Of a DNA stretch of 55,200 bases, positions 15,720-34,217 are shown piece after piece (position 1 is the first letter of the stretch; each line of letters begins with the position of its first letter). The notes beneath the pieces are model-generated. The model saw nothing but the letters and a program-made list of their open reading frames with translations, searched no databases and was not told where the DNA came from. Source of the DNA: an uncultured Eubacteriales bacterium. GTDB taxonomy: Bacteria; Acidobacteriota; Aminicenantia; Aminicenantales; UBA8522. A program made the position numbers and the translations under genes. The stretch is from NCBI GenBank assembly GCA_964651495.1, contig CAZYWP010000005.1:1-55200 (forward strand). The letters run 5' to 3'.

Positions 15720-18155
15720 TCAGCGAAAGCGGCAGGAAATTCGGACGAAGATGCCGAGGAACCGTTTATCTTTACTATTCCGATCTATTTCGTATGGAAA
15801 AAAGCCGCTGCTCTCCTCCACCTCGAGAGCATAAAGGCAACGCCCTTTCCAGCGGACGCCGCGCGGCGAGGTCACACGCAGAACCGTTGGGCTGCTCGAC
15901 GCCGCGGCCCGCTCGATTTTCTGTTGCGCAGTCGCAAGCCGGATCCTCGTCTCCCCTTCGACCGGGCTGGAGAGCGTGAGCAAAAATTCGGAGACCGGCT
16001 TGACCGTCTGGACGACCAGAAACGCGCGGCTCGACCCCTTGACCCAGAACCCGCCGGCCTCTGCTCCATAGCTGTCTCCGTCCTGGGGAAATACGGCGGT
16101 ATTCCCGTCCTCCAGTCGAAATCCGTCGATGAGACGGACATCGCAGAACCGATAAGCCGTGACTAATGCGCCGAGGACGATGACGAGCGCGACATCAGAG
16201 AAGAACGCCAGACGACGGTGCTCCTGGCTATCCTTCCGCCCGGTTCTCCGCCAGAACAGAGTGATCCCCAGGACCGCGGGGATCCAGAAGGCCAACGGAA
16301 CCCAATTTCTGAGCTCCGCCGCCCGGGCGGAGAGCGAAGGAACGAGCTTGGTCCAGTCAACCGCAATGTTGCTCAAACCGGACAGAAATTTGCTGCTCAT
16401 CTCGCCGTCCCTGTCGAACGAGAGCGAGGAAAGGCCTTCGTGGTAGAGCAACCTGGGGTTTCGGACGGCGAAAAAAGTCAAAATCAGGCCGGCGGCAAGC
16501 AGGGCCGCGCCGATGACCCGCCCGGCGCGGCTGGGCACGATAGTGAATGCCCAGGCCAGGAACAACCCCATCACCCAGAGGACCGGAAGAAGCGGCCGGC
16601 CGGGCGGACAGTACCCTCCCCAGTACGGCGTGAAAGAGCAGAACAGCCAAAAAACGGCCAGGAGAGCGAAAAGGATGCCGGACTCCCTCGGGCGGCTCTT
16701 GCGGAGTGCCAGGAACCCGGCCAGGCTGAGAATATAAATGGGAGCAAAGACCATAAACCCCGCCCGCTGATCGAAGAGGAGTCCGAAGAACCGCCGTCCG
16801 AAGTCCACGACATTGGCCGCAAGAATCCGGGAGAGGGAGAAATCCCGGGCAGCGGCGGTTCCCAAGTAAACGCTTTTGGGCGAGAGGCTGCCGAATGACG
16901 ACAATAAAAAATAGAGAAAAAATGCGGCCGACGCGAAAAGCGGCGCGAAGAGGGCCGCCGCCCCGCGCAGACTCCTCCGGCCCGACTGGAAAAAGAGGAC
17001 AAGGATGACCAGGAAAGCCGTCAGCGCCAGGATGAGATATTTCAAGGCGAACCAGGGCAAGAGGCCCATTCCGAGCCCCGCCCAAAACAAATTCCGGGTG
17101 GACAGCCGCTTCTTCAGGACCAACTCCAGCGTTATCCATATCAAAATCAAGGCCGCCGGGATTTCGGGATAAATCAGATGAGAATAGAAAATCAGCGGAG
17201 CGGTGAAGCTGAAAATGATCCAGGCGGTCAGAGCGACAGAATTCCTTTTTGTCAGCTCCCGGACGGAAAGGAAGAAACCGAGGCCGAGCAGGGCGGCTAA
17301 AAGGCAAACCGGCAGACGGATGAAAAAGACCAGGACATCTTTTCGCTCGACGGCCCGACCGGTCAGACGGGAGAGGATGCCCCCCGCTTTTTCGCCCGCC
17401 GCATAGAAGGGGACGATCAGGAGGGGGAGGCCGGGAAAGTGCTTGGAGAAAAGGTATTTCTCCCCTTTCCGGCCGGGATAGGCATGCGGCTCCAGGCGGC
17501 CGCGGTAAAAATCCTCATAATTCCGGTCGAGATAGTCATTAAAGAGGTTGATATCGCCGTCGGCCAGGAGGCTCCTGGCCACGAGGACGTAGTGGGGCTC
17601 ATCTCCGGTCAAGGGCTGGGCCGGGACCACGAGACCGGAATTATAAACCGTGTAGACGCTCAGAGTGATCAGGAAGACGGCAAGGGGAAGCCGGCGGCCG
17701 GCGGTCTTTCCGCCGTCTAACCTGTCCTTCATCTGAGCCGGCAGAGTCCGGCGCGAGGGAATCCATTCGACCCGCATCAGAAAGACGGCCTGAAGGACAA
17801 GAAATCCCAGGGCTGAAACAAGGATGAGCGCGGGGTCGATATCGTTGAGATAGACAAAAGACTGGAGAAACGTCAGGGACAGAAAAAGTAAAGGTGATAA
17901 GGAGAGGGCCAGCGATTTCCTCAGCTCGCTCCGCGGCGCCCCCGTCTTCGATTCCAGGAACCGGGCATAGAGATCCACCGCTTTGAGAATGAGCGCCGCC
18001 GCAACAAGGACGATTCCCCCCAGAACCGGCCAGGCCCAGGCGAGCGGCCTTCCCGCCTCCCGCCATGGGTCCAGGATAAGACTGCGCCAGAGAAAAGAGG
18101 ACAGCGCCAGAATCTCCAACCCTAAAAGAAGACGATCTGTTTGCTTTCTCTTCAC
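15720..18155 (-). CDS. GT-C-fold polytopic membrane glycosyltransferase with C-terminal extracytoplasmic domain
   Basis: Many TM helices; GDEPHY acidic motif in the first loop; YPEIP; soluble beta-rich C-terminus. Confidence 0.75.
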   Translation of the reverse strand: MKRKQTDRLLLGLEILALSSFLWRSLILDPWREAGRPLAWAWPVLGGIVLVAAALILKAVDLYARFLESKTGAPRSELRKSLALSLSPLLFLSLTFLQSFVYLNDIDPALILVSALGFLVLQAVFLMRVEWIPSRRTLPAQMKDRLDGGKTAGRRLPLAVFLITLSVYTVYNSGLVVPAQPLTGDEPHYVLVARSLLADGDINLFNDYLDRNYEDFYRGRLEPHAYPGRKGEKYLFSKHFPGLPLLIVPFYAAGEKAGGILSRLTGRAVERKDVLVFFIRLPVCLLAALLGLGFFLSVRELTKRNSVALTAWIIFSFTAPLIFYSHLIYPEIPAALILIWITLELVLKKRLSTRNLFWAGLGMGLLPWFALKYLILALTAFLVILVLFFQSGRRSLRGAAALFAPLFASAAFFLYFLLSSFGSLSPKSVYLGTAAARDFSLSRILAANVVDFGRRFFGLLFDQRAGFMVFAPIYILSLAGFLALRKSRPRESGILFALLAVFWLFCSFTPYWGGYCPPGRPLLPVLWVMGLFLAWAFTIVPSRAGRVIGAALLAAGLILTFFAVRNPRLLYHEGLSSLSFDRDGEMSSKFLSGLSNIAVDWTKLVPSLSARAAELRNWVPLAFWIPAVLGITLFWRRTGRKDSQEHRRLAFFSDVALVIVLGALVTAYRFCDVRLIDGFRLEDGNTAVFPQDGDSYGAEAGGFWVKGSSRAFLVVQTVKPVSEFLLTLSSPVEGETRIRLATAQQKIERAAASSSPTVLRVTSPRGVRWKGRCLYALEVEESSGFFPYEIDRNSKDKRFLGIFVRISCRFR

Positions 18156-18290: not shown

Positions 18291-19100
18291 TCAGGTGGGT
18301 TGCGGTTTTTTCGGCTTGATCAGGAACTCCTGGGACAGCTTGTCCAGTTCCATCTCGATCTCTTCGAGGGTTCTGAGCTTCATCCTTTTCTCGTGGGCCT
18401 CGGCGTTATCGAAGGAATGGACGTAACTGGGGTCTTTCTGCGCGGCCTCATTGACCGCTTCCTTGACTTTCTCGGCCTCCTCGGCCAGCTCTTCCTCCTG
18501 CGGCCTGATCCCCAGGACCTTTTCTTTCACCGCCGGGACGGTCAGCTTGGCGATCTCCTTCAGGGTTTCGAAAACACCGACGCCGTTGATCGCCGAGGCT
18601 TCGACCGAGGGCAGATTGAGCGGGTTGAGCAACTGGTTGAAGGTCTCGACCGGGATCAGGTTGTCCAGGTCCCGTTTATTGTACTGGAAGACGAGGGGGA
18701 GGAAATTGATGTCGATATCCAGGGAGAGCAGGTTGCGTCTCAGGTTGTCGAAGCTCTCCAGGTTGGCATCGAGGAGTGGGATCTGGGAATCGGCCACAAA
18801 GACGATCCCGTCCGAACCGCGGAGGACGTTCTTGCGCGAAGCTTCGTAGAAAATCTGCCCGGGCACGGTCATGAGCTGGAAATGAACCCGGTAGTCGCCG
18901 ACCAGGCCGGCCTTGACCGGCAGGAGGTCGAAAAAATAGGTCCGCTCGGTGTCCGTCTCCAGGCAGACAAGGTCCCCGCGCGAGGTCGGGTCGAGCTTGA
19001 AATAAATGCAGCGGAGGTTGGTCGTCTTGCCGCTCAGCCCCGGGCCATAGTAGACGATCTTGATCGCCAGGTTCTTGGTGACGTGGTTGACGAATGCCAT
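18291..19100 (-). CDS. mglA: MglA-family small GTPase with C-terminal extension
   Basis: KIVYYGPGLSGKTTNL, ERTYFFD, TVPGQ..Y, DGIVFVADS, QYNKRD, A.A.NG.GV; start reassigned to ATG at 19100. Confidence 0.88.
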   Translation of the reverse strand: MAFVNHVTKNLAIKIVYYGPGLSGKTTNLRCIYFKLDPTSRGDLVCLETDTERTYFFDLLPVKAGLVGDYRVHFQLMTVPGQIFYEASRKNVLRGSDGIVFVADSQIPLLDANLESFDNLRRNLLSLDIDINFLPLVFQYNKRDLDNLIPVETFNQLLNPLNLPSVEASAINGVGVFETLKEIAKLTVPAVKEKVLGIRPQEEELAEEAEKVKEAVNEAAQKDPSYVHSFDNAEAHEKRMKLRTLEEIEMELDKLSQEFLIKPKKPQPT

Positions 19101-19165
19101 AGCTGCGCCTTTATTTCTCCTCAATCCTTAGCATACATCTCCGGTGATGTCAAACCGCCTCCCGT

Positions 19166-20338: not shown

Positions 20339-21399
20339 CTCAGTTTCTCGATCATCCGGAGGAGGAACGGTTCGCGCCCCTCGCTCGTCAGCCTCGCCAG
20401 CCGGTCGCGCTGGCCCTTGATTAACTTGGCGCGGACGTTTTGGTCATGGGCGACAATGTCCACGAGCTCGGCCGTCTCCTCCACCTTTTTCCGCCGGAGC
20501 AGGAGGCCGGCCCCAGCGAGGGTGTCGGGGACGGCGGTGGAATCATAGGCGATGACCGGAAGGTCAAAGACCATGCTCTCGACAAGGGGCAGGCAGAAGC
20601 CCTCGTGCTCGCTCAGCGAGAGAAAGACGTCCGCCGCCCGGAAGACGGCGTGCATCTCCTCGTCCGGGATATGGCCGGTAAACTGGATTTCCTCGGGCTT
20701 GAGCAGAAAGTCGTCGGCCAGCTTGACCAGGCTGCCGTAATAGACAGGAAGCGAGCCGGTCTTGCCGACGACGACCAGCCGCACCAGGGAAGAAATGTAC
20801 TTTTTGTAGTAGAAGACGACCCGGATCAGATCCTCGATCTTCTTGTTGGGCACGACCCGGCCGACAAACAGAATATTCGTCCGGTCGTCCCGGAGCAGTT
20901 TATAGACCAGCTCGTTTTTGGGTTTCTTGTATTTTTCCAGGTCGATATAAAGCGGGAAGACCTGCGCCTCCCTGAACCCGAATTCGACGAGCTCCCCGGC
21001 GTTGAAGCGGGAATCCGCCAGCGCGATGTCCACGACCGGCGCCAGCGACCGGAGCTCTTCCCGGCCGAGGCGGCAGAGCCGGGCCATCTCCTCGCTGAAC
21101 CCGGCAAAGAACTCGGGCGCGGTTATGTTGTGGTGGATGATGACTTTTTTCCCGGGAAGCCGGCGAAAAGCCGGGGTGAGCGGAGAGGGCAGGGCGAAAT
21201 GGAGAACCATGATGTCGGACGGCGCCGGCTCGGGGAAGAAGGCGAAATCCGCCGACTCCTGCTCGAGCCCGCGGTCACAGGAGAGGCGATAGATCTCCGA
21301 GTCGAAGCCCTGCGACCGGAAAAACCGCCTCAGGTGCGTGGCCTCGTCACCAATGGCATCCCCCCGGTGGTAGGCGGGAACGAGCTGGTCGATCCTCAT
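20335..21399 (-). CDS. GT4 glycosyltransferase (type B)
   Basis: GDAIGDE N-terminus; [10 protein letters not shown]; [12 protein letters not shown]. Confidence 0.92.
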
Positions 21400-22463
21400 C
21401 CCCGGCTGACCTCTTCAATATGGCGCAGCAGGATGCGGCTGACATTCTCGCAGCTGAATTTCTCCAGGGCGCGGAGCTGTCCCCGGACGACGGCCTCGCG
21501 GAGGGGCGCCTTCTTCACCAGGACATCAACGAGCGCCGCGACGCGGAACAAATCCTTCTCCGCCAGGAGCACTCCCCCCCCGTTCATGGTCTCCTCGACG
21601 GCCCCCGCTCTGAACCCGATGACGGGAATTTTCTGGTAGAAGGCCTCGAGGATCGGCACTCCGAACCCCTCGTGCTCGCTCAGGCTCAGGTAGACGTCGG
21701 CGGCTTCATAGAAAGCCCGCAGCTCGGAGAAATCGCTGTGGCCCGGGAAATGAACGTCCTTGAGGGAGAGCCTCCCGGCCAGCTCCAAAAGGCCGGCGGA
21801 ATACCTCTCCAGCCCGCGGTAGTCTCCGGCCAGGATGAGCCGCGAGTCGGGGTTGAAATACTTTTGGTAAAAATAAAAGGCTTTGATGACTTCCTCGAAC
21901 TTCTTGTTCGGAATGAACCGGCCGACAAAGAGGACTGTCGTCTTGCCGTCGCCGAACAGGCGCCGCCTCACCGGGTCGCCCGGCCGGTCGAACTTGGCAA
22001 AATCCATCAGGATGGGCAGGACGCCGGTTTTTTTATACCCGACCGCCTCGAGCTCCCGCCGGTTGAACTCGGAGTCGCCCAGGGCCAGGTCGACCTTGTC
22101 GACGAAGAGCTTGATCTCCAGCCGTCCCTTGTAGCATTCCCGGGCCAGGATGCGGTGCGCATCGATAAAGTACTGGTGCGGGGTGATGTTGTGGTAGATC
22201 ATGATCTTTTTGTCGGGGACGCGGAAAAACATCTTGGAGACGGGAGACCCGATGGAAAAGTGGAAAATGACGACGTTCGCGAGCGAGCTGTGCTTCCTGT
22301 ACTCCCGGTAATCGCGCCTGGCCCCGGCCGTGCGGGGGTCGAAGAAGCGGGTGAAGATCTCGGAGCGATAGCTGTGCTCACGGAGGACCTTCTGGATCTC
22401 CAGCATCTCGTCCGAGATGGCATCGCCGTAGCTCAGCGAGGTGGCGAACTGGTGGATCTCCAT
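21396..22463 (-). CDS. GT4 glycosyltransferase (type B')
   Basis: GDAISDE; HNITP; FVGRFIPNKK; SEHEGFGVPILE. Confidence 0.92.
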   Translation of the reverse strand: MEIHQFATSLSYGDAISDEMLEIQKVLREHSYRSEIFTRFFDPRTAGARRDYREYRKHSSLANVVIFHFSIGSPVSKMFFRVPDKKIMIYHNITPHQYFIDAHRILARECYKGRLEIKLFVDKVDLALGDSEFNRRELEAVGYKKTGVLPILMDFAKFDRPGDPVRRRLFGDGKTTVLFVGRFIPNKKFEEVIKAFYFYQKYFNPDSRLILAGDYRGLERYSAGLLELAGRLSLKDVHFPGHSDFSELRAFYEAADVYLSLSEHEGFGVPILEAFYQKIPVIGFRAGAVEETMNGGGVLLAEKDLFRVAALVDVLVKKAPLREAVVRGQLRALEKFSCENVSRILLRHIEEVSRG

Positions 22464-24712: not shown

Positions 24713-26143
24713 TCAGGAATCAAAGGGGCAAACATCTTCAGAGAACCTGACTGCTAGCAGCCCTCGGAAATAGTCGCGGACCTGGTTGGCGAAAACCTCG
24801 CGCCGGAATGCCCTCCCCCTTTCATGGGCGCGACCGCTCATCTCTTTAAGCCGGACGGGATTTCCCATAAGGCCCAGGGTATTGGTGACCATCTCTTTCT
24901 CGGAAGAAAACAGGAATCCCGAGATCCCGTCCTCGACGATCTCCGTCTGTCCGCCGCCGCGGAAGACAATCGGCACACTGCCGTTCTGCATGGCCTCGGC
25001 CACGGTCATCCCGAAGTGCTCGACCCTGGCCGGGTCACTCTGCCCGAGGCCGCAGAAATGCCAGAAGATCTTGGCCCGCTCGTAGATGGCCCTGAGGTCG
25101 GAAGCCGTGATGTTGATTTTGAGTTCGACCTCCGCCCCCGGAGTTTGACGGAGACGGTCTTGAATTCTCTCAAGATAAGGGTTTTCCGGGGGGCTCCCCC
25201 CGACCAGGACAAACCTCCAGCCGGCCAATTCCCGGGGACGGCTGTGCGCCAGATCCTGGAACACTTTGATCATCTCCAGTTGCTGCTTATTGCCGCCGAC
25301 GTCGAACCGGGAGACTGAAAGAATGAAGTTCTCCTTCGCTACCGGGAAGGCCGCCGGCTCCATGTCCACGGGCGGGTAGATATGCTTGTGGGGGTGAAGA
25401 TTCCATCGTCTCTCGATCCAGCGGGCCGTGTAGAGGCTGTTGTGGACGATCTCCGTGTAGCGGTCGACATAAAAAAACCGCGACTTTTCTCTCTCCGGAA
25501 AATGGCAGATGAACACCGATGTGTTGGCCAGAGGGTAGACCATCTCCAGCATGCCGTTGTTGACAAATATGTCGTAGCGGCCGCTTTCCCGACTGACGGC
25601 ATGGAAGGGGTTCGGCCCGCTCGTGTTCACTTCCCCCGCGTCGATGATCTGGGGATGGCGGCCTTTCTCTTCGAAATACGGAAGCGGGACGAATTCGAGC
25701 CGGCAGCGGCCAAGGTCGAGATCATACCAGGCTTGGAGATCGGCCAGGCTGACGGGTTTATTGGCCAGGAGAGTGACTTCGAAGTCGTCCTGCAGAGTCT
25801 GGGCCATCGTCAAGCCGTATTTCTGGGCTCCCCCGATGTAGTGAAAGGCATGGTCATAGATCCCGATCCGGGGCTGGCGCAGACGGAGGGCCACCTCCAG
25901 GAAAGAGAGCACGTTCCAGGCGGATTGGACGCTTTTCCGGCGGGCCAGTTCGTCCACCAGCCTGGGCAATAAACGCGAAGTCTGAGCCGGCGGCTGACGT
26001 TTGACCCATCTTAAGACAAGCGCATTCAGGACCGCCTGGGGAATTTCTTTCTTATTATTCAGATAACGCTGGAGAACTCGGCCGAAGTCCCGGGGTGATT
26101 TCTCAGCGGCCAGCCGAAGATCGGAAAATTCCGCCATGACCAT
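24713..26143 (-). CDS. GT4 glycosyltransferase with extra N-terminal helical region
   Basis: GGAQKY; ILSVSRF..GGNKQQ; EHFGMTVAE; GGQTEIVEDG.SG.LF. Confidence 0.88.
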   Translation of the reverse strand: MVMAEFSDLRLAAEKSPRDFGRVLQRYLNNKKEIPQAVLNALVLRWVKRQPPAQTSRLLPRLVDELARRKSVQSAWNVLSFLEVALRLRQPRIGIYDHAFHYIGGAQKYGLTMAQTLQDDFEVTLLANKPVSLADLQAWYDLDLGRCRLEFVPLPYFEEKGRHPQIIDAGEVNTSGPNPFHAVSRESGRYDIFVNNGMLEMVYPLANTSVFICHFPEREKSRFFYVDRYTEIVHNSLYTARWIERRWNLHPHKHIYPPVDMEPAAFPVAKENFILSVSRFDVGGNKQQLEMIKVFQDLAHSRPRELAGWRFVLVGGSPPENPYLERIQDRLRQTPGAEVELKINITASDLRAIYERAKIFWHFCGLGQSDPARVEHFGMTVAEAMQNGSVPIVFRGGGQTEIVEDGISGFLFSSEKEMVTNTLGLMGNPVRLKEMSGRAHERGRAFRREVFANQVRDYFRGLLAVRFSEDVCPFDS

Positions 26144-26155
26144 TTGGGTTCGAGG

Positions 26156-26593
26156 TTATTCCTGTTTTTCCTGGGTGATCGGCGGCGCCTTGGCCGCCAG
26201 GGCTTCGAGCTTCTCTTTCATCTTCTCCATTCGCAGCAGGTTCGCCAGTTGAAACTGGACGAGCTCGCGGTCGAAGCGGCTCTGCCGCTCCAGGATCATC
26301 TTGGCATAGGGACGCATCAAGGCGCGCCAAACCTTTTTGCCAAGGATGATGACCCGGCCGACGAGCCGGCGGCGGGAGGTGATCGGCCCCTCCTCGAGGC
26401 AGTCTTTGTTTTTCTCCAAGAAAAAGAAAGAGTCCCAGGCTACTTTCTCCAGAGCTTTTTCGCTGAGGCCCCAGAGCTCCCCCTCAATCTTCTCTCCGCT
26501 AAGGGCCTCGACGTCCTGGATGGCCTCTCGCTTTTCTGCTAGAGCCGTTTTAATTTTTTGAATTTGCTTCTCGATCTCCCGGCTGTCTTTCAT
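26156..26593 (-). CDS. Hypothetical coiled-coil protein
   Basis: 145 aa; charged heptads; ITSRRRLVG...RPY...Q.RFD segment. Confidence 0.75.
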   Translation of the reverse strand: MKDSREIEKQIQKIKTALAEKREAIQDVEALSGEKIEGELWGLSEKALEKVAWDSFFFLEKNKDCLEEGPITSRRRLVGRVIILGKKVWRALMRPYAKMILERQSRFDRELVQFQLANLLRMEKMKEKLEALAAKAPPITQEKQE

Positions 26594-26699: not shown

Positions 26700-27890
26700 T
26701 CATCGCTTATCTCCGACCCCGGCATTGGACGTAATGAAGTCGGCATAACTCCGGACGCATTTTTCCATATCGCCCTCGTTCCGAACATAAGAGGAGGCCT
26801 CTCTTCCCACGGACAGGCGAAGATCCCGGTCCTCGATCAGAGCGGCGAGATAGGCCTTGAGCATCGCCAGTTCGTCGATATCCGGATCGATCTTGAGGGC
26901 CGCCCAATCCGGGATCTCGGCATAGGATCCGAAGTTCGTGATCAGGGTTGGCCTGGCGTAGCCCATCTGCCGCAGCAGGGCCGCCGAGCTCTCCCCCATC
27001 GTTGGATACCGGAGGTTGACGCAGATGTCGGAGGCGGAAATCAGGCTCTCCAGCCTCTCCAGAGGAAGGAAGCTCAGAACGGAGATCTGGCCGCGAGAGG
27101 CGGCGACAAGATCCCGGAGCAACTTTCCCCGGTCTTCTCCCGCAATGATATATTTGAGGCGGGGATCGGCAAGCTCGCCGAGAGCGGCGATGACGAGGTC
27201 ATATCGTCTGTTGCGGTTGACGAACCCTACAGAGGAGATCAGGATATCGTCCGGGGCGACTCCCCACTCTTTTCTTTCGGCGGTCCGGTCAAAAGTCTTG
27301 AGAACATGGTCGTGAAGGGGGATCCTGACGACCGGCTTGCTGGTCTTTCTTTCCACCCGCTTCTTGACAAAATCAGAATGGACGATGACGGCGGTGGACA
27401 GGTCGAGGGTCTCCTCGTTCAGGGGAAAGTCGAGTGCTTCTTCGTTTTCCCAAATCGGGGGGTAAACTCGGCGGGCGACAACCTCGGCGACTTCCAGCCC
27501 TCTTTTTCCATAGTATCGTTGGAGGAGCTCTTGGTAATCCTTGAAATTCTTCTCCACCTCTGCCCTCTCCACATAGAATCCCTGGAGAACGTAGTCGTGA
27601 AGAACGACGATGCCGGGGAATTTTCTCAGAGCCTCATAGACAAAGCGGTGAGCTCGATAATAATTCCCCATGTGGTAGAGGATGGCATCGTAACTGGAGG
27701 CGGGAAAGGAGGCCGGTTCGAAGGGAAAGACACGGAACTGGGCCCGAATAGACGGGCTTGTCGGGACGTGCCGGGGATCGAAATAGAGGTCGATCTCAAA
27801 GTATTTTTTGAGCAGAGGGAGCATCTCTTCGGTGTAATCGGCGATGCCGCTCTTCATCGGATGGAGCGGGCTGAACAGCGCTATCTTCAT
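26700..27890 (-). CDS. GT4 glycosyltransferase
   Basis: MKIALFSP.HP.KSGIADY; YHMGN; LHD; SDICVNLRYPTMGESS (EX7Q rather than EX7E); start reassigned to ATG at 27890. Confidence 0.88.
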   Translation of the reverse strand: MKIALFSPLHPMKSGIADYTEEMLPLLKKYFEIDLYFDPRHVPTSPSIRAQFRVFPFEPASFPASSYDAILYHMGNYYRAHRFVYEALRKFPGIVVLHDYVLQGFYVERAEVEKNFKDYQELLQRYYGKRGLEVAEVVARRVYPPIWENEEALDFPLNEETLDLSTAVIVHSDFVKKRVERKTSKPVVRIPLHDHVLKTFDRTAERKEWGVAPDDILISSVGFVNRNRRYDLVIAALGELADPRLKYIIAGEDRGKLLRDLVAASRGQISVLSFLPLERLESLISASDICVNLRYPTMGESSAALLRQMGYARPTLITNFGSYAEIPDWAALKIDPDIDELAMLKAYLAALIEDRDLRLSVGREASSYVRNEGDMEKCVRSYADFITSNAGVGDKR

Positions 27891-27895
27891 CGAGT

Positions 27896-28996
27896 TCACC
27901 CGCCGACCAGGGTCTCGATCACCGTATCCCAGTTGATGTCTTTGACCTTTTCCAACCCGGCCTGGCCGAAGCTGCGGCATTTTTCTTTGTTGAAGAAGAG
28001 TTCCTCGGATTTGGCGGCCAGGTCCCTCTCCTCCGCAGATTGGATAACGATGCCGGTCCGTCCGTCCTCGACGAATTCCAGGGGACCGCCGGAGTCGAGT
28101 CTGGTAATGACGGCCTTGCCGGAGAGGAAAGCCTCCAGGGTGACATAGCCGTAATCTTCGTCCAGCGGGGCAAAATAAACCTCCGTGGCATGGGCGTAGA
28201 GAGCCAGGAGTTCATCGTTCGGGACAAAACCCAAAAATTCCACGCGCTCGGCCACACCGCATTCCCGGGCCAGCTGTTGCAGGTTCTTGAGCTCAGGCCC
28301 GCTGCCAGCGATTTTGCATTTGATCCGGCGATCCATCCAGCGCAAAGACCGGAGGAGAAAATCGATTCTTTTCAAGCGCTCCAGACGACCCACCGAAAGA
28401 ATATAGCCACGGTCTTCGCCGGCAAAGTACTGTCCGGCGAGATGGGGCGGATGATAGAGCGGGACGGAGTCGATGCCGTTGTACTTTTTCAGCCGGGCGG
28501 CCGTGTTCTTGGAGTTGGTGTAAATCCGTTTGTAGGTCTTGAGGACCTCCGTATCCAGCTTGATCAGCTTGTCCCGGAACCTTCGGTCGGTCTCCCGGGA
28601 GGGATCGAAGTCTGAGTAAGGAGTTCCCCAGAGATCGTAGATATGCCTGAACTGGTGGATGAGCCAGAGGACCTTATGAGGGTGCTCGGCAAAGTAAGAG
28701 GGAAATTTGGTGGTGATGATCATATCGATCGGTTTATCGTTGGACTCGCTGAGGTCAAGCAGGCGCCAGATCTCCAGGCTCTGCAAGAGCTGGACGCGGG
28801 GGTACCATTTATAGGGAATATTGATCAGGTCGACTTCATACTGCCTCTTGGCCAGCTCCCGGATCAGCCCGCTGACGTGGGCTTCCGCGCCACCCTCGAA
28901 GAAGGGGACCTGGGCAGCACAGACCGCGATGGTCTGGACGGGCCTTTCGTCTCTGGAAAATTCGAGTTTTGCCTTGATCTTAGTCAGCAGGCCCAT
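27896..28996 (-). CDS. GT4 glycosyltransferase
   Basis: AQVPF..GGAE; TKFPSY; WLIHQ.R; SVGRLE.LKR; EDYGYVTLE. Confidence 0.92.
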   Translation of the reverse strand: MGLLTKIKAKLEFSRDERPVQTIAVCAAQVPFFEGGAEAHVSGLIRELAKRQYEVDLINIPYKWYPRVQLLQSLEIWRLLDLSESNDKPIDMIITTKFPSYFAEHPHKVLWLIHQFRHIYDLWGTPYSDFDPSRETDRRFRDKLIKLDTEVLKTYKRIYTNSKNTAARLKKYNGIDSVPLYHPPHLAGQYFAGEDRGYILSVGRLERLKRIDFLLRSLRWMDRRIKCKIAGSGPELKNLQQLARECGVAERVEFLGFVPNDELLALYAHATEVYFAPLDEDYGYVTLEAFLSGKAVITRLDSGGPLEFVEDGRTGIVIQSAEERDLAAKSEELFFNKEKCRSFGQAGLEKVKDINWDTVIETLVGG

Positions 28997-29306
28997 GGGT
29001 CTTGTGATCTTCGTCGGTCGGACCGCGTTGCTGGGTGGAGAGGATCTCTCTGAGGAGCTCGATTTCCTTGAGAAAGCGGAGGTTGATCTCTTTCTGGTTG
29101 TCCAGGATGGGCTGGAGGATCAGGCTCACTTCCAGGATCAGACGTTTTCTGATCTTTTGCGGTATGATCCGGAAGATGGCCTTGCGGTGGGAACCATGGA
29201 GGTGAAATTTCCTCTCCATAATCTTGGCCCGGAGATGGTTGAGCTGATCCTTCTCGACTTCCTTCCGGATTTCCTTGATTTTTTTCAGGATCTCTTCGCG
29301 GTCCAT
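28980..29306 (-). CDS. Hypothetical coiled-coil protein, first gene of the GT operon
   Basis: ATG at 29306 has a GAGG RBS; the track start at 29339 lies inside the -10 box; SHRK...QPILDNQKEIN segment. Confidence 0.7.
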   Translation of the reverse strand: MDREEILKKIKEIRKEVEKDQLNHLRAKIMERKFHLHGSHRKAIFRIIPQKIRKRLILEVSLILQPILDNQKEINLRFLKEIELLREILSTQQRGPTDEDHKTHGPAD

Positions 29307-29337: not shown

Positions 29338-29367
29338 ATTATAATTATCCCCTTCCGCTAATGTCAA
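29338..29367 (-). promoter_or_regulatory. Consensus sigma70 promoter TTGACA-N18-TATAAT for the glycosyltransferase operon
   Basis: Both hexamers are perfect on the minus strand. Confidence 0.8.
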
Positions 29368-29461: not shown

Positions 29462-29644
29462 AATGAAAATGTCCCTCTGGGAAGCGACGGTTTCGCGCCG
29501 GAGCGGCGGTCTCATTGACCTTTGTTTCGTCCAGATAGAAATCAAGAGCCATATTCTATATAATGAATCAGCATTTTAAGAACCTTGATTCGGTTCGAAA
29601 TGCTGGAACCGAATAAGGTTGGGAAGATGTGAGCAGGATGTCGA

Positions 29645-30997
29645 ATGGATAGCGAAAAAACTTTCGCCCTGCCCGATGAAGAATTCATCAAAGCGATATA
29701 CCGGGAGCTTCTCGGAAGGGAAGCAGACCCGGACGGCATGGGCTACTATCTCAAGATTCTACGCCAGAAAAGATATCCCCGGAAATTCGTGGTCAGGTCC
29801 ATCAAGGACTCCTGGGAATACCGCCTGGGCCAGGCCAAGTCCGACGTCCCGAAACTCGTGGCCGAGAACAAGAAGCTCAATGAACAGGAGGTGGCGGCCG
29901 GGAAGACAGTCCTGCAGTCGACGCCCATCGCCTTCAACCTGGACCTCATCGGCGTCTGCAACATGAAGCCGCCCTGCGGCATGTGCCTGAACTGGGTGGA
30001 CGACACGGGACCGCGCTATCATCCGGGGCTTACGGCCGACGACTTCCGGGCTTTCGGCGATCCCCTCCGCCTGGCCTGGGACGTCATCAATTGCAGCATC
30101 GGCGAGCCCCTCATCCTGAAAGACCTCCTGCCGGTCCTCGATCTTCTGTCGTCCTGGGAGAAACCGTTCGGGATCAACAGCAACGGCCTGGCCTTGACGC
30201 CGCAGCTCACAGACAAGCTGAGGCCTTTTTTCGAAATCCTGACCATCACCTTTTCCCTGGACGCAGCCACTCCGGAAACCTACGCCAAAATCCGCGGGCC
30301 GCATTTCCTGAAGGTCATCGAAAACATCGCCTATTACTGCGAGAGGCGGCGACAGGTCTTCCCCGAAGGGGCCGCCTCAAAGACCGGCACGGTCATGCTT
30401 CCCATGAAACTCAACCGACACGAAGTCAGCGGTTTCATCCGGCTGGCCGCCTGGCTGGGCCTGGACGTCGTGGAGCTTCGTCAGCTCAACGAGTACGGCG
30501 GCGAGTGGAAGGTGGACAAGGGGGGATTCCTTTTCGATTATCAGGAGCAGGTCCTCCCTCCCCGGGAGCTCGAGGAAGTCCGGGAAGAAGCGGAGGAAAC
30601 AGCGGCCGAGTGCGGCATCATCCTCGACTGCCAGTACCAGGTCTCGGGGGAGAGGACGTATGAGGCCTTTCTCCCCGAAGACAAGCAAGAGGGCAAAATC
30701 AAGTGCATCCAGCCGTGGCATTTTATCCTGCCCTATCAGAATGGGGACACCGCTGGCTGCTGCTATATGGGGAAATCGCTGGGGAATTGGCGGGAAGGGG
30801 GGTTGGAGAGCCTGTGGAACGGGGACCGCATGCAGCAGATCCGGAAAGAGATGGCGGAGGGGAAGCTGCCCCGGGAATGCCGCCAGTACATCTCCTGCCC
30901 TGTCGTCAGAGCCAACCTTGACCCCCGGCCCGGGAGAGACAAGAGAAAACGCGCCGGGACAATCAATTTTCTTAGCCTTCCGGTCAGGCGACGATGA
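29645..30997 (+). CDS. DUF4214-radical SAM-SPASM/Twitch protein
   Basis: N-terminal EFIKAIYRELLGREADPDG; CNMKPPCGMC; SIGEP, NSNG, SLDA; C-terminal CIQPW...GCC...GN...LWNG...C....SC. Confidence 0.85.
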   Translation: MDSEKTFALPDEEFIKAIYRELLGREADPDGMGYYLKILRQKRYPRKFVVRSIKDSWEYRLGQAKSDVPKLVAENKKLNEQEVAAGKTVLQSTPIAFNLDLIGVCNMKPPCGMCLNWVDDTGPRYHPGLTADDFRAFGDPLRLAWDVINCSIGEPLILKDLLPVLDLLSSWEKPFGINSNGLALTPQLTDKLRPFFEILTITFSLDAATPETYAKIRGPHFLKVIENIAYYCERRRQVFPEGAASKTGTVMLPMKLNRHEVSGFIRLAAWLGLDVVELRQLNEYGGEWKVDKGGFLFDYQEQVLPPRELEEVREEAEETAAECGIILDCQYQVSGERTYEAFLPEDKQEGKIKCIQPWHFILPYQNGDTAGCCYMGKSLGNWREGGLESLWNGDRMQQIRKEMAEGKLPRECRQYISCPVVRANLDPRPGRDKRKRAGTINFLSLPVRRR

Positions 30998-32859
30998 AGA
31001 CGGCGTTTCGTATCGTTTCGTCCCTTGTCATTGCCCTGGTCTTTGGCCTCGTCCTCCACGAATTCTCCTTTCGCGAACTCCAGAAAAAGGTGGTCCGGGT
31101 TTCGGGGAGCCGAGAGAGCCGGGCCCGCCAGGTCAGGAAGGATTTCTTCCTCGAGGGGGTGCGGGATAACGATGTTTACGTCCTCGAGGCTGTCTTCTTC
31201 GAAAGACGTCGGGACGCTCTCAACCTGAATCTTTTTCTTAACGAAACCCGGGTCCTTTCCTTTGCCGCCGACCAGAAGGCCAAAATCATCGATATCCCGG
31301 CCTCATTCCTGAGAAACGGCAAAAACTCCCTGGCGGTCACGGCGGACAGAGCCTGGAATTTCAAATCCCTGCGCTTGAAAAATATCTACGGGTACTCATC
31401 CGGATTTCCCAAGCTGACGGTCATCCCCAAAAAGAATGAATTCCGGACTTCCGGCTCGCCCCGGGACGCTTCATTCTACCTGATTTTCCTGATCCTCTTT
31501 CTCTCCTCCGTTTTCGCTTTGAACCTCAAGGCCGGCGAGGAAAAGGTCCCCTCTCCCAAAAAGGTTCGGGTCGTTCGAAGCCTGAGGCACGTTGTTCTAT
31601 TCCTGTTCGCTCTCGTACTGATCATCCCCCTGGTAACCAAATACAGGGTCGTCCTGGGCTTCAGGTCAGTCCTGCATCTGGCCGCCATCTACCTGGGCCT
31701 TTTATATTTGGCGAAGATAAAGAATTTCCTGGCCGGGGCGGCCAAGGGATTTCTCCGCTTCGTCACCGCCTGGCAGGAGCCGATGGCCCTCTTCGTGATC
31801 ACCAGGCTGGGCATCTACGGGCTGGGGTATCTCTCTTCCTTAGCCATCAACAAGGGCGCCTGGTTCTCCACCCATCTGCCCTCCTACTTCCTCAACCTTT
31901 TTTTCAATTGGGACTCCTTCTGGCATCACGGGATCGCCGAGCTCGGCTATTATTTCATCCCGGGGAAGCCTTCGAACATCGCCTTTTTCCCGCTCTATCC
32001 GATGACGGTCCAGTTTTCAAGCTTCATAGTGGGTGGACTGCGGACCAACGGTTTCATCATCTCCAACCTGGCCCTGTTTCTGGCCGTCTTCTATCTGGTG
32101 AAGCTCGTCCGCCTGGAATTCGGCGACGATTCGATCGCGGGCCGGTCGGCATTGTACCTGCTCGTTTTTCCCGGAAGCCTGTTTTTCTCCTATTTCTATT
32201 CCGAGGGGCTTTTTCTTTTTCTTTCACTTGCCGCTTTTTACGGGGCCAGGAAGAAGCGATGGCTGTCGGCTTCGATCTTGGGATGCCTCGCGGCCCTCAC
32301 CAAGATCATCGGCGTTCTTATCGTCATCCCCCTGCTGATCGAATACTTCGAGCCTCGTCTTCGAGCCCGCAAAATCAAACTCAACCCGGCCAAACTCGAG
32401 GCCCTGTCCCTGCTCCTAGTTCCCCTGGGCCTGCTAAGCTTCATGACCTACTGCGGTATTAAGTTCGGAGACCCGTTAGCCTTCATCCATGCTCAGGCCG
32501 CCTGGGGAACCAAGGCTGTGACGCCTGCAGGTAGCTTGGCAAAGATCAGTATGTTTCCCCCGTTCTTCAAGATGCTCTACCCAGGATTTCTGGTCTTTGC
32601 TCTCTTGGTAATCGTGGCAATGATCCTTAATAAGCTCAGGACAAGCTATATTGTCTACGCCGGCCTGCTTCTTCTGGCATACCTATCCTCAAATAACCTC
32701 GAGGCTGTGCCCCGGCAGCTCAGCGTAGTGTTTCCGCTATTTATCGGAATGGCTTTCCTGGGGAAGAACAGGCTGGCCCATCATGTCATTGTTTTTATTT
32801 CCATCGCCCTGCTCACCGTATTCACCGTCCTGTCGGCCAACGGGTACTGGTTCGTCTGA
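30994..32859 (+). CDS. PIG-V-like (GT-C) membrane mannosyltransferase-type protein with N-terminal extracytoplasmic domain
   Basis: WDS.W...IAE.GY, AFFPLYP, YSEGLFL, AALTK..G, PR...V.FP motifs; multiple TM helices. Confidence 0.8.
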   Translation: MKTAFRIVSSLVIALVFGLVLHEFSFRELQKKVVRVSGSRESRARQVRKDFFLEGVRDNDVYVLEAVFFERRRDALNLNLFLNETRVLSFAADQKAKIIDIPASFLRNGKNSLAVTADRAWNFKSLRLKNIYGYSSGFPKLTVIPKKNEFRTSGSPRDASFYLIFLILFLSSVFALNLKAGEEKVPSPKKVRVVRSLRHVVLFLFALVLIIPLVTKYRVVLGFRSVLHLAAIYLGLLYLAKIKNFLAGAAKGFLRFVTAWQEPMALFVITRLGIYGLGYLSSLAINKGAWFSTHLPSYFLNLFFNWDSFWHHGIAELGYYFIPGKPSNIAFFPLYPMTVQFSSFIVGGLRTNGFIISNLALFLAVFYLVKLVRLEFGDDSIAGRSALYLLVFPGSLFFSYFYSEGLFLFLSLAAFYGARKKRWLSASILGCLAALTKIIGVLIVIPLLIEYFEPRLRARKIKLNPAKLEALSLLLVPLGLLSFMTYCGIKFGDPLAFIHAQAAWGTKAVTPAGSLAKISMFPPFFKMLYPGFLVFALLVIVAMILNKLRTSYIVYAGLLLLAYLSSNNLEAVPRQLSVVFPLFIGMAFLGKNRLAHHVIVFISIALLTVFTVLSANGYWFV

Positions 32860-32961: not shown

Positions 32962-33438
32962 ATGCGTGAATTGAGAAGACGGATCCGGGTCGGGGTCATC
33001 GGGGGAAGCTCTTCCGACAACCGGTCGCTGCTCGCGGCGTACAAAGTGGGACAATTGATCGCTCAGTCGGGAGCCATCCTGGTCTGCGGCGGTCTGGGCG
33101 GGGTCATGGAGGCCGCCGCCTCCGGCGCCAAGAGCGCCGAAGGGACGACCATCGGTATCATCCCGGGGAACAACACCTCCGAAGCCAACCCGCACATCGA
33201 CGTCCCGATCGCTACGGGCCTGGGATATACGCGTAACTCTCTGGTCGCCATGAACGCCGATGCCCTGATCGCGATCGCGGGAGAGTACGGCACCCTCTCC
33301 GAAATCGCTTACGGTAACATTTACGGCAAGAAAGTCATCGGCCTGGGATCCTGGGAGGTCAAAGGGGTCGTCAAGGCCGCTTCGCCCGAAGAGGCGGTCG
33401 AGCTGGCGCTCCGTGACTTCAAAACTATCAATAGATAG
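32962..33438 (+). CDS. TIGR00725-family (LOG/SLOG-like Rossmann) protein
   Basis: IGVIGG, LVCGGLGGVMEAA..GAK, IGIIPG, RN, GEYGTLSEIA. Confidence 0.9.
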   Translation: MRELRRRIRVGVIGGSSSDNRSLLAAYKVGQLIAQSGAILVCGGLGGVMEAAASGAKSAEGTTIGIIPGNNTSEANPHIDVPIATGLGYTRNSLVAMNADALIAIAGEYGTLSEIAYGNIYGKKVIGLGSWEVKGVVKAASPEEAVELALRDFKTINR

Positions 33439-33458
33439 ATAGATAGATAGATAGATAG
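33431..33458 (+). repeat. (ATAG)7 tetranucleotide microsatellite overlapping the stop codon
   Basis: Seven perfect ATAG units counted directly. Confidence 0.95.
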
Positions 33459-33482
33459 AGAACTCTACGGATACGGACAGCA

Positions 33483-34217
33483 ATGGGACTCGCCGCCTAT
33501 AAACTCGTCCTCAGCTACGATGGCACGGATTTCTGCGGCTGGCAGAGACAGCCGAACAACCGGACTGTTCAGGGTGTGATCGAGCAGGCCCTGGCCAGGA
33601 TCACGGGTAAAAAGATCTCCGTAACCGGGGCCGGCCGGACCGATGCCGGCGTGCACGCCCTGGGCCAGGCGGCCAGTTTCAGAGCCGACCTCCGGTTGAA
33701 AAAAGCTGAGCTTCAACGCGCCCTCAATGCGGTCCTTCCCGAGGACGTCCGCGTTCTCTCCGTCCGGAAGGCGCCGCCGGACTTCAATGCCCGAAAAATG
33801 GCCAAAGCGAAAGTCTACCGCTATCGCCTCTTCAACGGGCGCCGGGTCAGCCCGTTTCTTGTTCGCTATGTCCTTCACTGGCCCGGGCGCCTCGATATCG
33901 CGAAAATGTCCGAAGCCGCGCGTCTGTTCGTCCGCGAAGCGGATTTCACGGCGTTTTCTTCCAACCGCTTGCTCCACCCGGTTCGCCGAATCATCCGATC
34001 GGAAATCAAGACAAGAGGTCCCGAGATCACCTATACGGTCGAGGCGACGGGCTTTCTCAGATATATGGTCAGGACGATAATGGGAACGCTGCTCGAGGTG
34101 GGAAGGGGAAAAATGGAACCGCAGCGGGTCGAAGAAATCTTCCGCCAGAACAGGCGCTCGCTGGCCGGCCCCACCGCCCCCGCCAAGGGCTTATGCCTAG
34201 TCAAGGTGATTTATTAA
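33483..34217 (+). CDS. truA: tRNA pseudouridine(38-40) synthase
   Basis: YDGTDFCGWQRQ, GAGRTDAGVHA.GQ, F.AR, Y.Y, FLRYMVR, TAP..GL.L..V.Y. Confidence 0.96.
   Translation: MGLAAYKLVLSYDGTDFCGWQRQPNNRTVQGVIEQALARITGKKISVTGAGRTDAGVHALGQAASFRADLRLKKAELQRALNAVLPEDVRVLSVRKAPPDFNARKMAKAKVYRYRLFNGRRVSPFLVRYVLHWPGRLDIAKMSEAARLFVREADFTAFSSNRLLHPVRRIIRSEIKTRGPEITYTVEATGFLRYMVRTIMGTLLEVGRGKMEPQRVEEIFRQNRRSLAGPTAPAKGLCLVKVIY

Follow-up and report, generated by a model that had tools for sequence, protein, structure and literature searches.

A twitch-type radical SAM enzyme with a CX5CX2C cluster motif and its glycosyltransferase cassette in Aminicenantia

Introduction

What does a radical S-adenosylmethionine (SAM) enzyme do when the cysteines of its cluster motif are unusually spaced, a DUF4214 module forms its N-terminus and its gene lies beside genes for glycosyltransferases? 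The question is raised by a gene at positions 29645..30997 (plus strand) of a 55,200-nucleotide stretch of DNA from an uncultured bacterium that is labelled Eubacteriales in GenBank and placed in the Aminicenantia (Acidobacteriota) by GTDB (assembly GCA_964651495.1, contig CAZYWP010000005.1, positions 1 to 55,200); we refer to this whole stretch as the window. To our knowledge, radical SAM enzymes with glycans or glycolipids of the cell surface as substrates have hardly been characterised, and those known to act on sugars belong to antibiotic pathways. An earlier note, made from the letters alone, had suggested a radical sugar modification in partnership with a membrane glycosyltransferase encoded downstream. 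Here we describe the enzyme, its family and its neighbourhoods. We put the probability at roughly 55% that it acts on the glycoconjugate made by an adjoining cassette of cytoplasmic GT4 glycosyltransferases, or on the sugar precursor of that product, at the transferase complex.

Results

Domains and conserved residues of the enzyme

The open reading frame (ORF) begins with ATG and encodes 450 residues. Three Pfam models match it above their gathering cut-offs: PF13946 (DUF4214) at residues 9-58 (29669..29818, plus strand; 30.3 bits, cut-off 23.2), PF04055 (Radical_SAM) at residues 103-253 (35.7 bits, cut-off 29.5) and the SPASM model at residues 354-413 (30.1 bits, cut-off 21.5), so that the fusion of radical SAM and DUF4214 domains read earlier at this place was borne out. 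In an AlphaFold2 model built on a 117-sequence alignment (mean predicted local distance difference test 90.2, predicted template modelling score 0.89), an all-helical N-terminal module (helices 11-23, 29-40 and 46-54) is followed by a helix at residues 68-84 (29846..29896, plus strand), a beta/alpha core and a C-terminal hairpin-plus-helix domain. Helix 68-84, which precedes strand 1 and in which N75, L78, N79 and E82 are invariant or nearly so, is common to the whole family in the alignments, including relatives without DUF4214.

Homologues were collected by a HMMER scan of 1.84 billion cluster representatives, which returned 897 relatives at E ≤ 1e-10, 68 of them also at E ≤ 1e-30; motifs and residues were counted in an alignment of the 130 nearest 50%-identity cluster representatives. 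The SAM-cluster motif reads C105-NMKPP-C111-GM-C114 (29957..29986, plus strand), as translated from tgc aac atg aag ccg ccc tgc ggc atg tgc, and all 130 representatives carry C105, C111 and C114, i.e. the three-cysteine motif of radical SAM enzymes in variant spacing. All full-length members of the 120 best homologues have the form CN[MVI]xP[PA]CxxC, down to 26% identity. The CX5CX2C spacing reported before is thus neither chance nor a sequencing error. The core motifs that had been called intact are equally well preserved, with G153-E154-P155, N180-G181 and S204-x-D206 invariant or nearly so among 117-130 homologues, as are Y213, R217, M254, N257, F297 and Y299. The first of these belongs to N149-C150-S-I-G153-E154-P155 (30089..30109, plus strand), a SAM-binding motif of the GGE type preceded by a clade-specific cysteine.

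The C-terminal domain is of the twitch type, with four to five conserved cysteines, and not a seven-cysteine SPASM domain, judging from the alignment. Its cysteines, C354-X17-C372(C373)-X38-C412-X5-C418 (30704..30898, plus strand), comprise a first half C354-X12-G367-X4-C372 (CX12GX4C) and then C412-X5-C418, and are predicted to bind an auxiliary iron-sulphur cluster. Nearly all representatives that bear the domain keep C354, C372, C412 and C418, and C373 is found in 88 of 108. The CX2CX5CX3C block of SPASM domains is absent from the alignment of this domain, and the remaining set fits the published definition, by which SPASM domains have seven or eight cysteines and two clusters and twitch domains three or four cysteines and one cluster (PMC9477430). 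Of the 'SPASM/Twitch' set that the earlier note had described as intact, the twitch part therefore stands and the full SPASM part does not; the Pfam SPASM model appears to match only through the first half, which the two domain types share. Taken together, sequence and model describe a functional-looking twitch-type radical SAM enzyme.

A GT4 cassette is the conserved genomic partner

Orthologs, defined by at least 50% identity, were found at 14 distinct loci, and neighbourhood statistics are based on contigs of metagenome-assembled genomes (MAGs). In 12 of these loci the ortholog adjoins a cassette of the order S1-GTa-GTb-(S2)-GTc, where S1 and S2 are small coiled-coil proteins and GTa, GTb and GTc are glycosyltransferases of the GT4 type; one further locus is interrupted by a contig end just past S1. 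The adjacency occurs in three gene orders (cassette divergent, downstream or upstream) and down to 52% identity of the enzyme, and the GTa orthologs next to it are 48-81% identical. In one ortholog (P0032), the enzyme itself carries S1 as a C-terminal fusion: the S1 of the window is 50% identical over 94 residues to residues 433-526 of the fusion (E 3e-24). The genetic linkage to the cassette, with this fusion in one ortholog, is robust, and it favours action on the cassette's glycoconjugate or a sugar precursor. P0042 and P0038 have a tail similar to that of P0032 and, in addition, a separate S1 gene.

In the window, the cassette heads a minus-strand operon that diverges from the enzyme gene and continues with four more GT4 genes and further genes. 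S1 (28980..29306, about 108-119 residues) comes first, followed by GTa (27896..28996, 366 residues; Glycos_transf_1, 103 bits), the divergent, GT4-like GTb (26700..27980; 30 bits), S2 (26156..26593, 145 residues) and GTc (24713..26143, 476 residues with an N-terminal extension; 60 bits). GTb and GTc are conserved members of the cassette, S2 keeps its position in it, and no Pfam or NCBIfam model matches S2. GTb probably starts later than its longest ORF, at MKIALFSP. The true start of S1 is likewise probably the ATG at 29306 (MDREEIL...), because a perfect promoter-like TTGACA-18-TATAAT that faces the operon (29338..29367, minus strand; 12/12 matches) overlaps the start of the longest ORF at 29339; similarity to S1 homologues also begins at 29306.

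The membrane glycosyltransferase that had been named as operon partner is a 621-residue polytopic protein of the GT-C type, similar to PIG-V/PMT_2 (30994..32859, plus strand; PF04188, 31 bits, cut-off 22.4), whose homologues carry PF04188 and PF13231. Its start overlaps the stop codon of the enzyme gene (ATGA, 30994-30997), and the two genes are translationally coupled; to this extent the earlier statement holds for the window. As a general partner we had to reject it. Its adjacency to the enzyme is confined to the four closest loci (the window, L009, L010 and L011), and whole-genome searches at E ≤ 1e-10 found no homologue in five of seven other ortholog-bearing genomes, one of them a complete chromosome. 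These five genomes carry the enzyme together with the cassette. The GT-C protein therefore cannot carry a functional inference, and the conserved partner is instead the cytoplasmic GT4 cassette with its two coiled-coil proteins.

The dependence looks one-way, since the cassette also occurs on its own. At least four further genomes of the class (L092, L093, L095 and L096) have it without the enzyme, as a self-contained unit between unrelated housekeeping genes. Neither a radical SAM gene nor a flippase, a polymerase or an ABC exporter lies nearby, so that the cassette may make something other than a classical exported polysaccharide. Enzyme orthologs were present in four of 121 sampled genomes of the class, and GTa orthologs in about 10. 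The enzyme, single-copy in its 3.09-Mb, 88%-complete genome, thus looks like an accessory tailoring step that accompanies the cassette, and not the reverse.

One MAG of Candidatus Aminicenantes contains a fragment 100% identical to the enzyme, and members of the family are concentrated in Acidobacteriota. Orthologs of 52-89% identity, with a cassette of the Aminicenantes type, are also present in several public MAGs that bear the names Clostridiales, Eubacteriales or Clostridia (L010, L011, L014-L016, L018, L019); the taxonomic labels of these records look unreliable.

The cluster loop varies in length within the family

The CX5CX2C spacing had been described as rare and known from HmdB. It is indeed rare in print, where it is tied only to HcgA/HmdB and one RadicalSAM.org megacluster. 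Within the enzyme's own family it is the majority state: the first two cluster cysteines are separated by five residues in 96 of the 130 representatives, by three in 26, by six in one, by seven in four and by eight in three. In the enzyme, the loop is longer by two residues (Pro-Pro) than in the canonical CX3CX2C. On a maximum-likelihood tree from which the loop columns had been excluded, CX3 and longer-loop forms are interleaved, requiring at least four to five changes of loop length, although the tree came from a quick search and many of its forks are unsupported. The CX7 and CX8 forms are nested within a CX5 clade. In that clade one representative (P0133) reverts to CX3, and longer loops occur in P0163, P0218 and P0237 and in P0196, P0200, P0243 and P0252, as CX8 (CNIPETSQAC) and CX7 (CNIANDKPC). 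These alignments and trees describe a large family with a length-variable cluster loop rather than a singular oddity, and the longer loop is a family trait without demonstrated tie to a special chemistry.

HcgA/HmdB, which act in the maturation of the [Fe]-hydrogenase cofactor, share the spacing of the SAM-cluster cysteines with our enzyme but differ in domain set and context, and the host is not a methanogen. The likeness is convergent: no HmdB model is among the 18 NCBIfam matches of the enzyme at E ≤ 0.1, and the interleaving of CX3 relatives in the family's tree shows an independent origin of the spacing.

We also examined residue 150, which is Cys in 70 representatives, His in 22 and another residue in 38. 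Cys150 is the mark of an 83-row clade that holds the enzyme, and a second CX5 clade carries His150. In raw counts, Cys150 occurs in 69 of 104 long-loop rows and in one of 26 CX3 rows. A functional coupling between loop length and Cys150 was nevertheless rejected, since on the tree the association reduces to a few clades (independent-pairs test, p = 1) and the His150 clade with its CX5 loop speaks against it as well.

Structural relatives and curated families

A Foldseek comparison of the model with the Protein Data Bank (PDB) gave 98 matches at E ≤ 0.001, and the best 50 were all radical SAM enzymes, as expected of the partial TIM barrel of this superfamily. At 11-17% identity and a TM score of about 0.5, they include SuiB, DesII, SkfB, BlsE, CteB, viperins, NifB, MoaA, PqqE and anSME; the Foldseek probability is 1.0 for the radical SAM/SPASM-twitch structures of SuiB, DesII, SkfB, BlsE, CteB, viperin, MoaA and anSME. 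Sequence and profile searches of the PDB yielded weak generic radical SAM matches only, BlsE and MoaA included. No NCBIfam model reached its cut-off with the enzyme (best 54.8 bits against 170) or with 63 of its relatives (best 196.7 against 380). The top-scoring curated models for enzyme or relatives were N_Twi_rSAM (NF033640), rSAM_Geo_metal (TIGR04311) and W_rSAM_matur (TIGR04317), which gave the enzyme 54.8, 49.4 and 28.5 bits against cut-offs of 170, 400 and 380. Within the library searched, there was no relevant paper on a DUF4214-radical SAM protein, on the enzyme family, or on twitch enzymes combined with glycosyltransferases and polysaccharide. No curated family, solved structure or paper was thus found to cover the enzyme, in line with the earlier view that it belongs to no characterised family; the tests made here exclude it from the HmdB, anSME, viperin and RiPP (a peptide made by the ribosome and then post-translationally modified) maturase families, and they do not place it with BtrN.

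The enzyme would work in the manner of BtrN (2-deoxy-scyllo-inosamine dehydrogenase), one of the closest known systems and the prototype twitch enzyme, which likewise joins a radical SAM core to a C-terminal domain with about four cysteines and one cluster. The C-X17-C...C-X5-C of the enzyme resembles the C-X18-C...C-X2-C of the auxiliary cysteines in BtrN, and enzymes of the BtrN type are also found in a sugar-pathway context. Other twitch radical SAM enzymes that act on carbohydrates are the epimerases HygY and NeoN and the dehydrogenase SpeY. The enzyme differs from BtrN in having CX5CX2C instead of CX3CX2C, an N-terminal DUF4214 module and a glycosyltransferase cassette in place of an aminoglycoside cluster, and BtrN is absent both from the 50 best Foldseek matches and from the PDB profile-search matches. 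DesII and BlsE, which act on nucleotide-linked sugars, hold Foldseek ranks 6-13 (15-17% identity) and share sugar chemistry as a theme; they differ in auxiliary domain and cluster motif and belong to antibiotic pathways rather than to a GT4 cassette. Membership in the anSME group was rejected: these structures rank 38-40 at 11-13% identity, no curated model applies, the SPASM cysteine set is missing and the conserved cassette contains no sulfatase gene.

Fusions and contexts in the wider family

Among 63 larger representatives, the radical SAM-twitch module is fused to GT4 domains in eight, to TPR repeats in six, to DUF4214 in six and to class-III aminotransferases in two. The latter two, P0147 (1636 residues) and P0167 (963 residues), combine the aminotransferase with a CX5CX2C/Cys150 module and fall in a clade sister to that of the enzyme; P0147 has an aldo-keto reductase domain in addition. 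The domain pairing of P0147 fits a carbonyl-forming radical step followed by transamination, and the two fusions suggest a hydroxyl-to-carbonyl-to-amine route in the sister clade.

One homologue of 46% identity, which lacks DUF4214, lies in a Wzm/Wzt glycan locus (L008) with two B12-radical SAM genes and adjoins a fusion of GT4, beta-sandwich and radical SAM domains of the CX5CX2C, His150 type. Neither the membrane protein encoded after this homologue nor the 811-residue protein of the window described below is homologous to the GT-C protein. The fusion (L008 5400-9101) joins GT4, a beta-sandwich (GWYEIE...FVWS) and a CX5CX2C radical SAM domain in 797 residues, and is followed by a separate ORF of 77 residues with twitch cysteines and then by a second CX5CX2C paralogue; fusion and short ORF may be one split or frameshifted gene. 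Relatives of about 30% identity are mostly 570-620 residues long, have an unassigned N-terminal domain and are stand-alone genes in varied contexts, and the contexts of two further homologues (L020 and L021; 41% and 33% identity) look unrelated to glycans.

Further features of the window

A second promoter-like element, TAGAAA-17-TATAAT (29536..29564, plus strand), lies 80 nt upstream of the enzyme ATG; it is a match of the consensus scan (10/12), not a promoter backed by functional evidence. At the far end of the GT4 operon, all on the minus strand, are a small GTPase-like protein with a weak EF-G-type match (18291-19121) and an 811-residue membrane protein with a weak match to the putative glycosyltransferases LA_3751/LA_3752 (15720-18152). 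A perfect (ATAG)7 microsatellite (33431-33459) separates a gene of the SLOG family (32962-33438) from truA (33483-34217). With a crude hidden Markov model (HMM), 15 GT4-like ORFs were counted in the genome, seven of them inside the window and four in a second group on another contig (C97). The genome also encodes a second DUF4214 protein, which is interrupted by a contig end and hence uninformative.

Discussion

Radical modification of a sugar is the most plausible reading of the enzyme, given its synteny and gene fusions, and the best reading of its chemistry is that of a twitch radical SAM oxidoreductase or epimerase. In such a scheme, C105, C111 and C114 would ligate the [4Fe-4S] cluster at which SAM is bound and reductively cleaved, and a single auxiliary [4Fe-4S] cluster would be ligated by C354, C372 (and C373), C412 and C418. 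The 5′-deoxyadenosyl radical would abstract hydrogen from a sugar C-H, and the substrate radical would then either be oxidised via the auxiliary cluster, turning an alcohol into a ketone as BtrN does, or be quenched by return of hydrogen from the opposite face, resulting in epimerisation, with Cys150 as a candidate donor. The substrate would be the glycoconjugate made by the neighbouring S1-GTa-GTb-S2-GTc cassette, or a sugar precursor of it. Recruitment to the cassette would occur through the coiled-coil S1 and perhaps also through the enzyme's own DUF4214 module. As the cassette exists without the enzyme, the latter would be an optional tailoring step and not part of the core.

Several observations weigh against this reading. 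At one locus (L002), no cassette lies within 8 kb of the ortholog. The peptide-modifying SuiB, SkfB and CteB are among the best structural matches, ahead of the sugar-acting enzymes. The GT4 fusions fall in the His150 clade, not in the Cys150 clade of the enzyme. Around the relatives of about 30% identity, GT4 genes are not enriched (three of 47 loci, 0.06 per 20 kb, as compared with a genome-wide 0.10 per 20 kb in the enzyme's genome; both rates were obtained with the crude HMM, which was built from seven sequences and is of limited sensitivity). Finally, sequence cannot decide between oxidation, epimerisation and other chemistry. Owing to the lack of GT4 enrichment, we rejected a glycan link for the family as a whole; on the evidence of gene neighbourhoods and fusions it is established only among the orthologs and in some of the fused branches.

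The alternative that survives best, unlikely as we consider it, is that the enzyme alters a soluble nucleotide-sugar donor ahead of its transfer, in the way that DesII, BlsE and viperin work on nucleotide-linked substrates, and so supplies an unusual donor to a glycosyltransferase. DesII (8hzv), BlsE (7vob), viperin and MoaA are all among the best structural matches, BlsE and MoaA recur among the few PDB profile matches, and the fusions to aminotransferase and aldo-keto reductase domains resemble small-molecule sugar pathways. However, the fusion to the S1 adaptor and, elsewhere in the family, to GT4 domains fits work at a transferase complex better, and the conserved cassette contains no nucleotidyltransferase or other sugar-activation gene.

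We think it improbable that the enzyme matures peptides or proteins in the manner of RiPP maturases or anSME, with S1, S2, a glycosyltransferase or another protein as its target. The top Foldseek matches SuiB, SkfB and CteB (E 2.5e-12 to 6e-08), with anSME lower, would suit such a role, and they share with the enzyme the layout of N-terminal accessory domain, radical SAM core and C-terminal cluster domain; small ORFs flank the enzyme gene, and TPR fusions occur in the family. The likeness is one of layout at 11-17% identity, though. SuiB and CteB have seven auxiliary cysteines, compared with four to five in the enzyme, and its N-terminus is the all-helical DUF4214 module, with no PqqD-like RiPP recognition element detected by Pfam or in the model. 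The locus lacks precursor peptide genes and the peptidase and exporter genes typical of RiPP clusters, and no curated maturase model comes near its cut-off. As for the small proteins that adjoin it, the coiled-coil S1 and S2 are conserved and are encoded in cassettes without the enzyme as well. A RiPP maturase with a recognition element was rejected on these grounds.

It is also improbable, in our view, that the neighbourhood is incidental or regulatory and that the substrate is an unrelated metabolite, lipid or cofactor, as may be the case for the stand-alone relatives of 30% identity. The varied contexts of these distant relatives, with their lack of GT4 enrichment, and the locus without a cassette would agree with it; an adjacency kept through three gene orders and down to 52% identity, together with the S1 fusion, is hard to obtain by chance. 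A role in anti-phage defence, as a viperin-like nucleotide modifier working with 'conflict-system' GT4s, is effectively refuted: the weak hits in its favour (pVip in PADLOC, 28 bits; the viperin NCBIfam model, 24.6 bits; and PF20706, 'GT4 in conflict systems', which matches GTe, one of the four extra GT4 genes at 21396-22460 on the minus strand, with 27.6 bits against a cut-off of 26) are outweighed by a viperin cut-off of 180, a pVip match that covers the generic radical SAM core only, and the absence of PADLOC matches among the nine neighbours tested.

Returning to the action on the cassette's product or precursor, a more specific form of this reading can be proposed, which we hold to be rather doubtful. 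Within an assembly line of cytoplasmic glycosyltransferases, the enzyme might be a radical module that docks through S1, to which it is fused in one lineage, and edits a sugar residue already built into the growing glycoconjugate through oxygen-independent in-chain oxidation or epimerisation; the enzyme belongs to a large unstudied twitch clade in which the SAM-cluster loop has changed in length repeatedly (CX3, CX5, CX6, CX7, CX8).

For the family, the data mean that the spacing between the first and the second cluster cysteine is evolutionarily plastic, with 3, 5, 6, 7 or 8 residues inside one clade, and that annotation and search rules tied to CX3CX2C will under-count or mislabel such radical SAM enzymes. 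A single-copy enzyme of 450 residues with a five-gene partner cassette is also a tractable test case. If our reading is true, the recruitment of such an enzyme to a cassette of glycosyltransferases would provide anaerobes with an oxygen-independent means of diversifying their envelope sugars.

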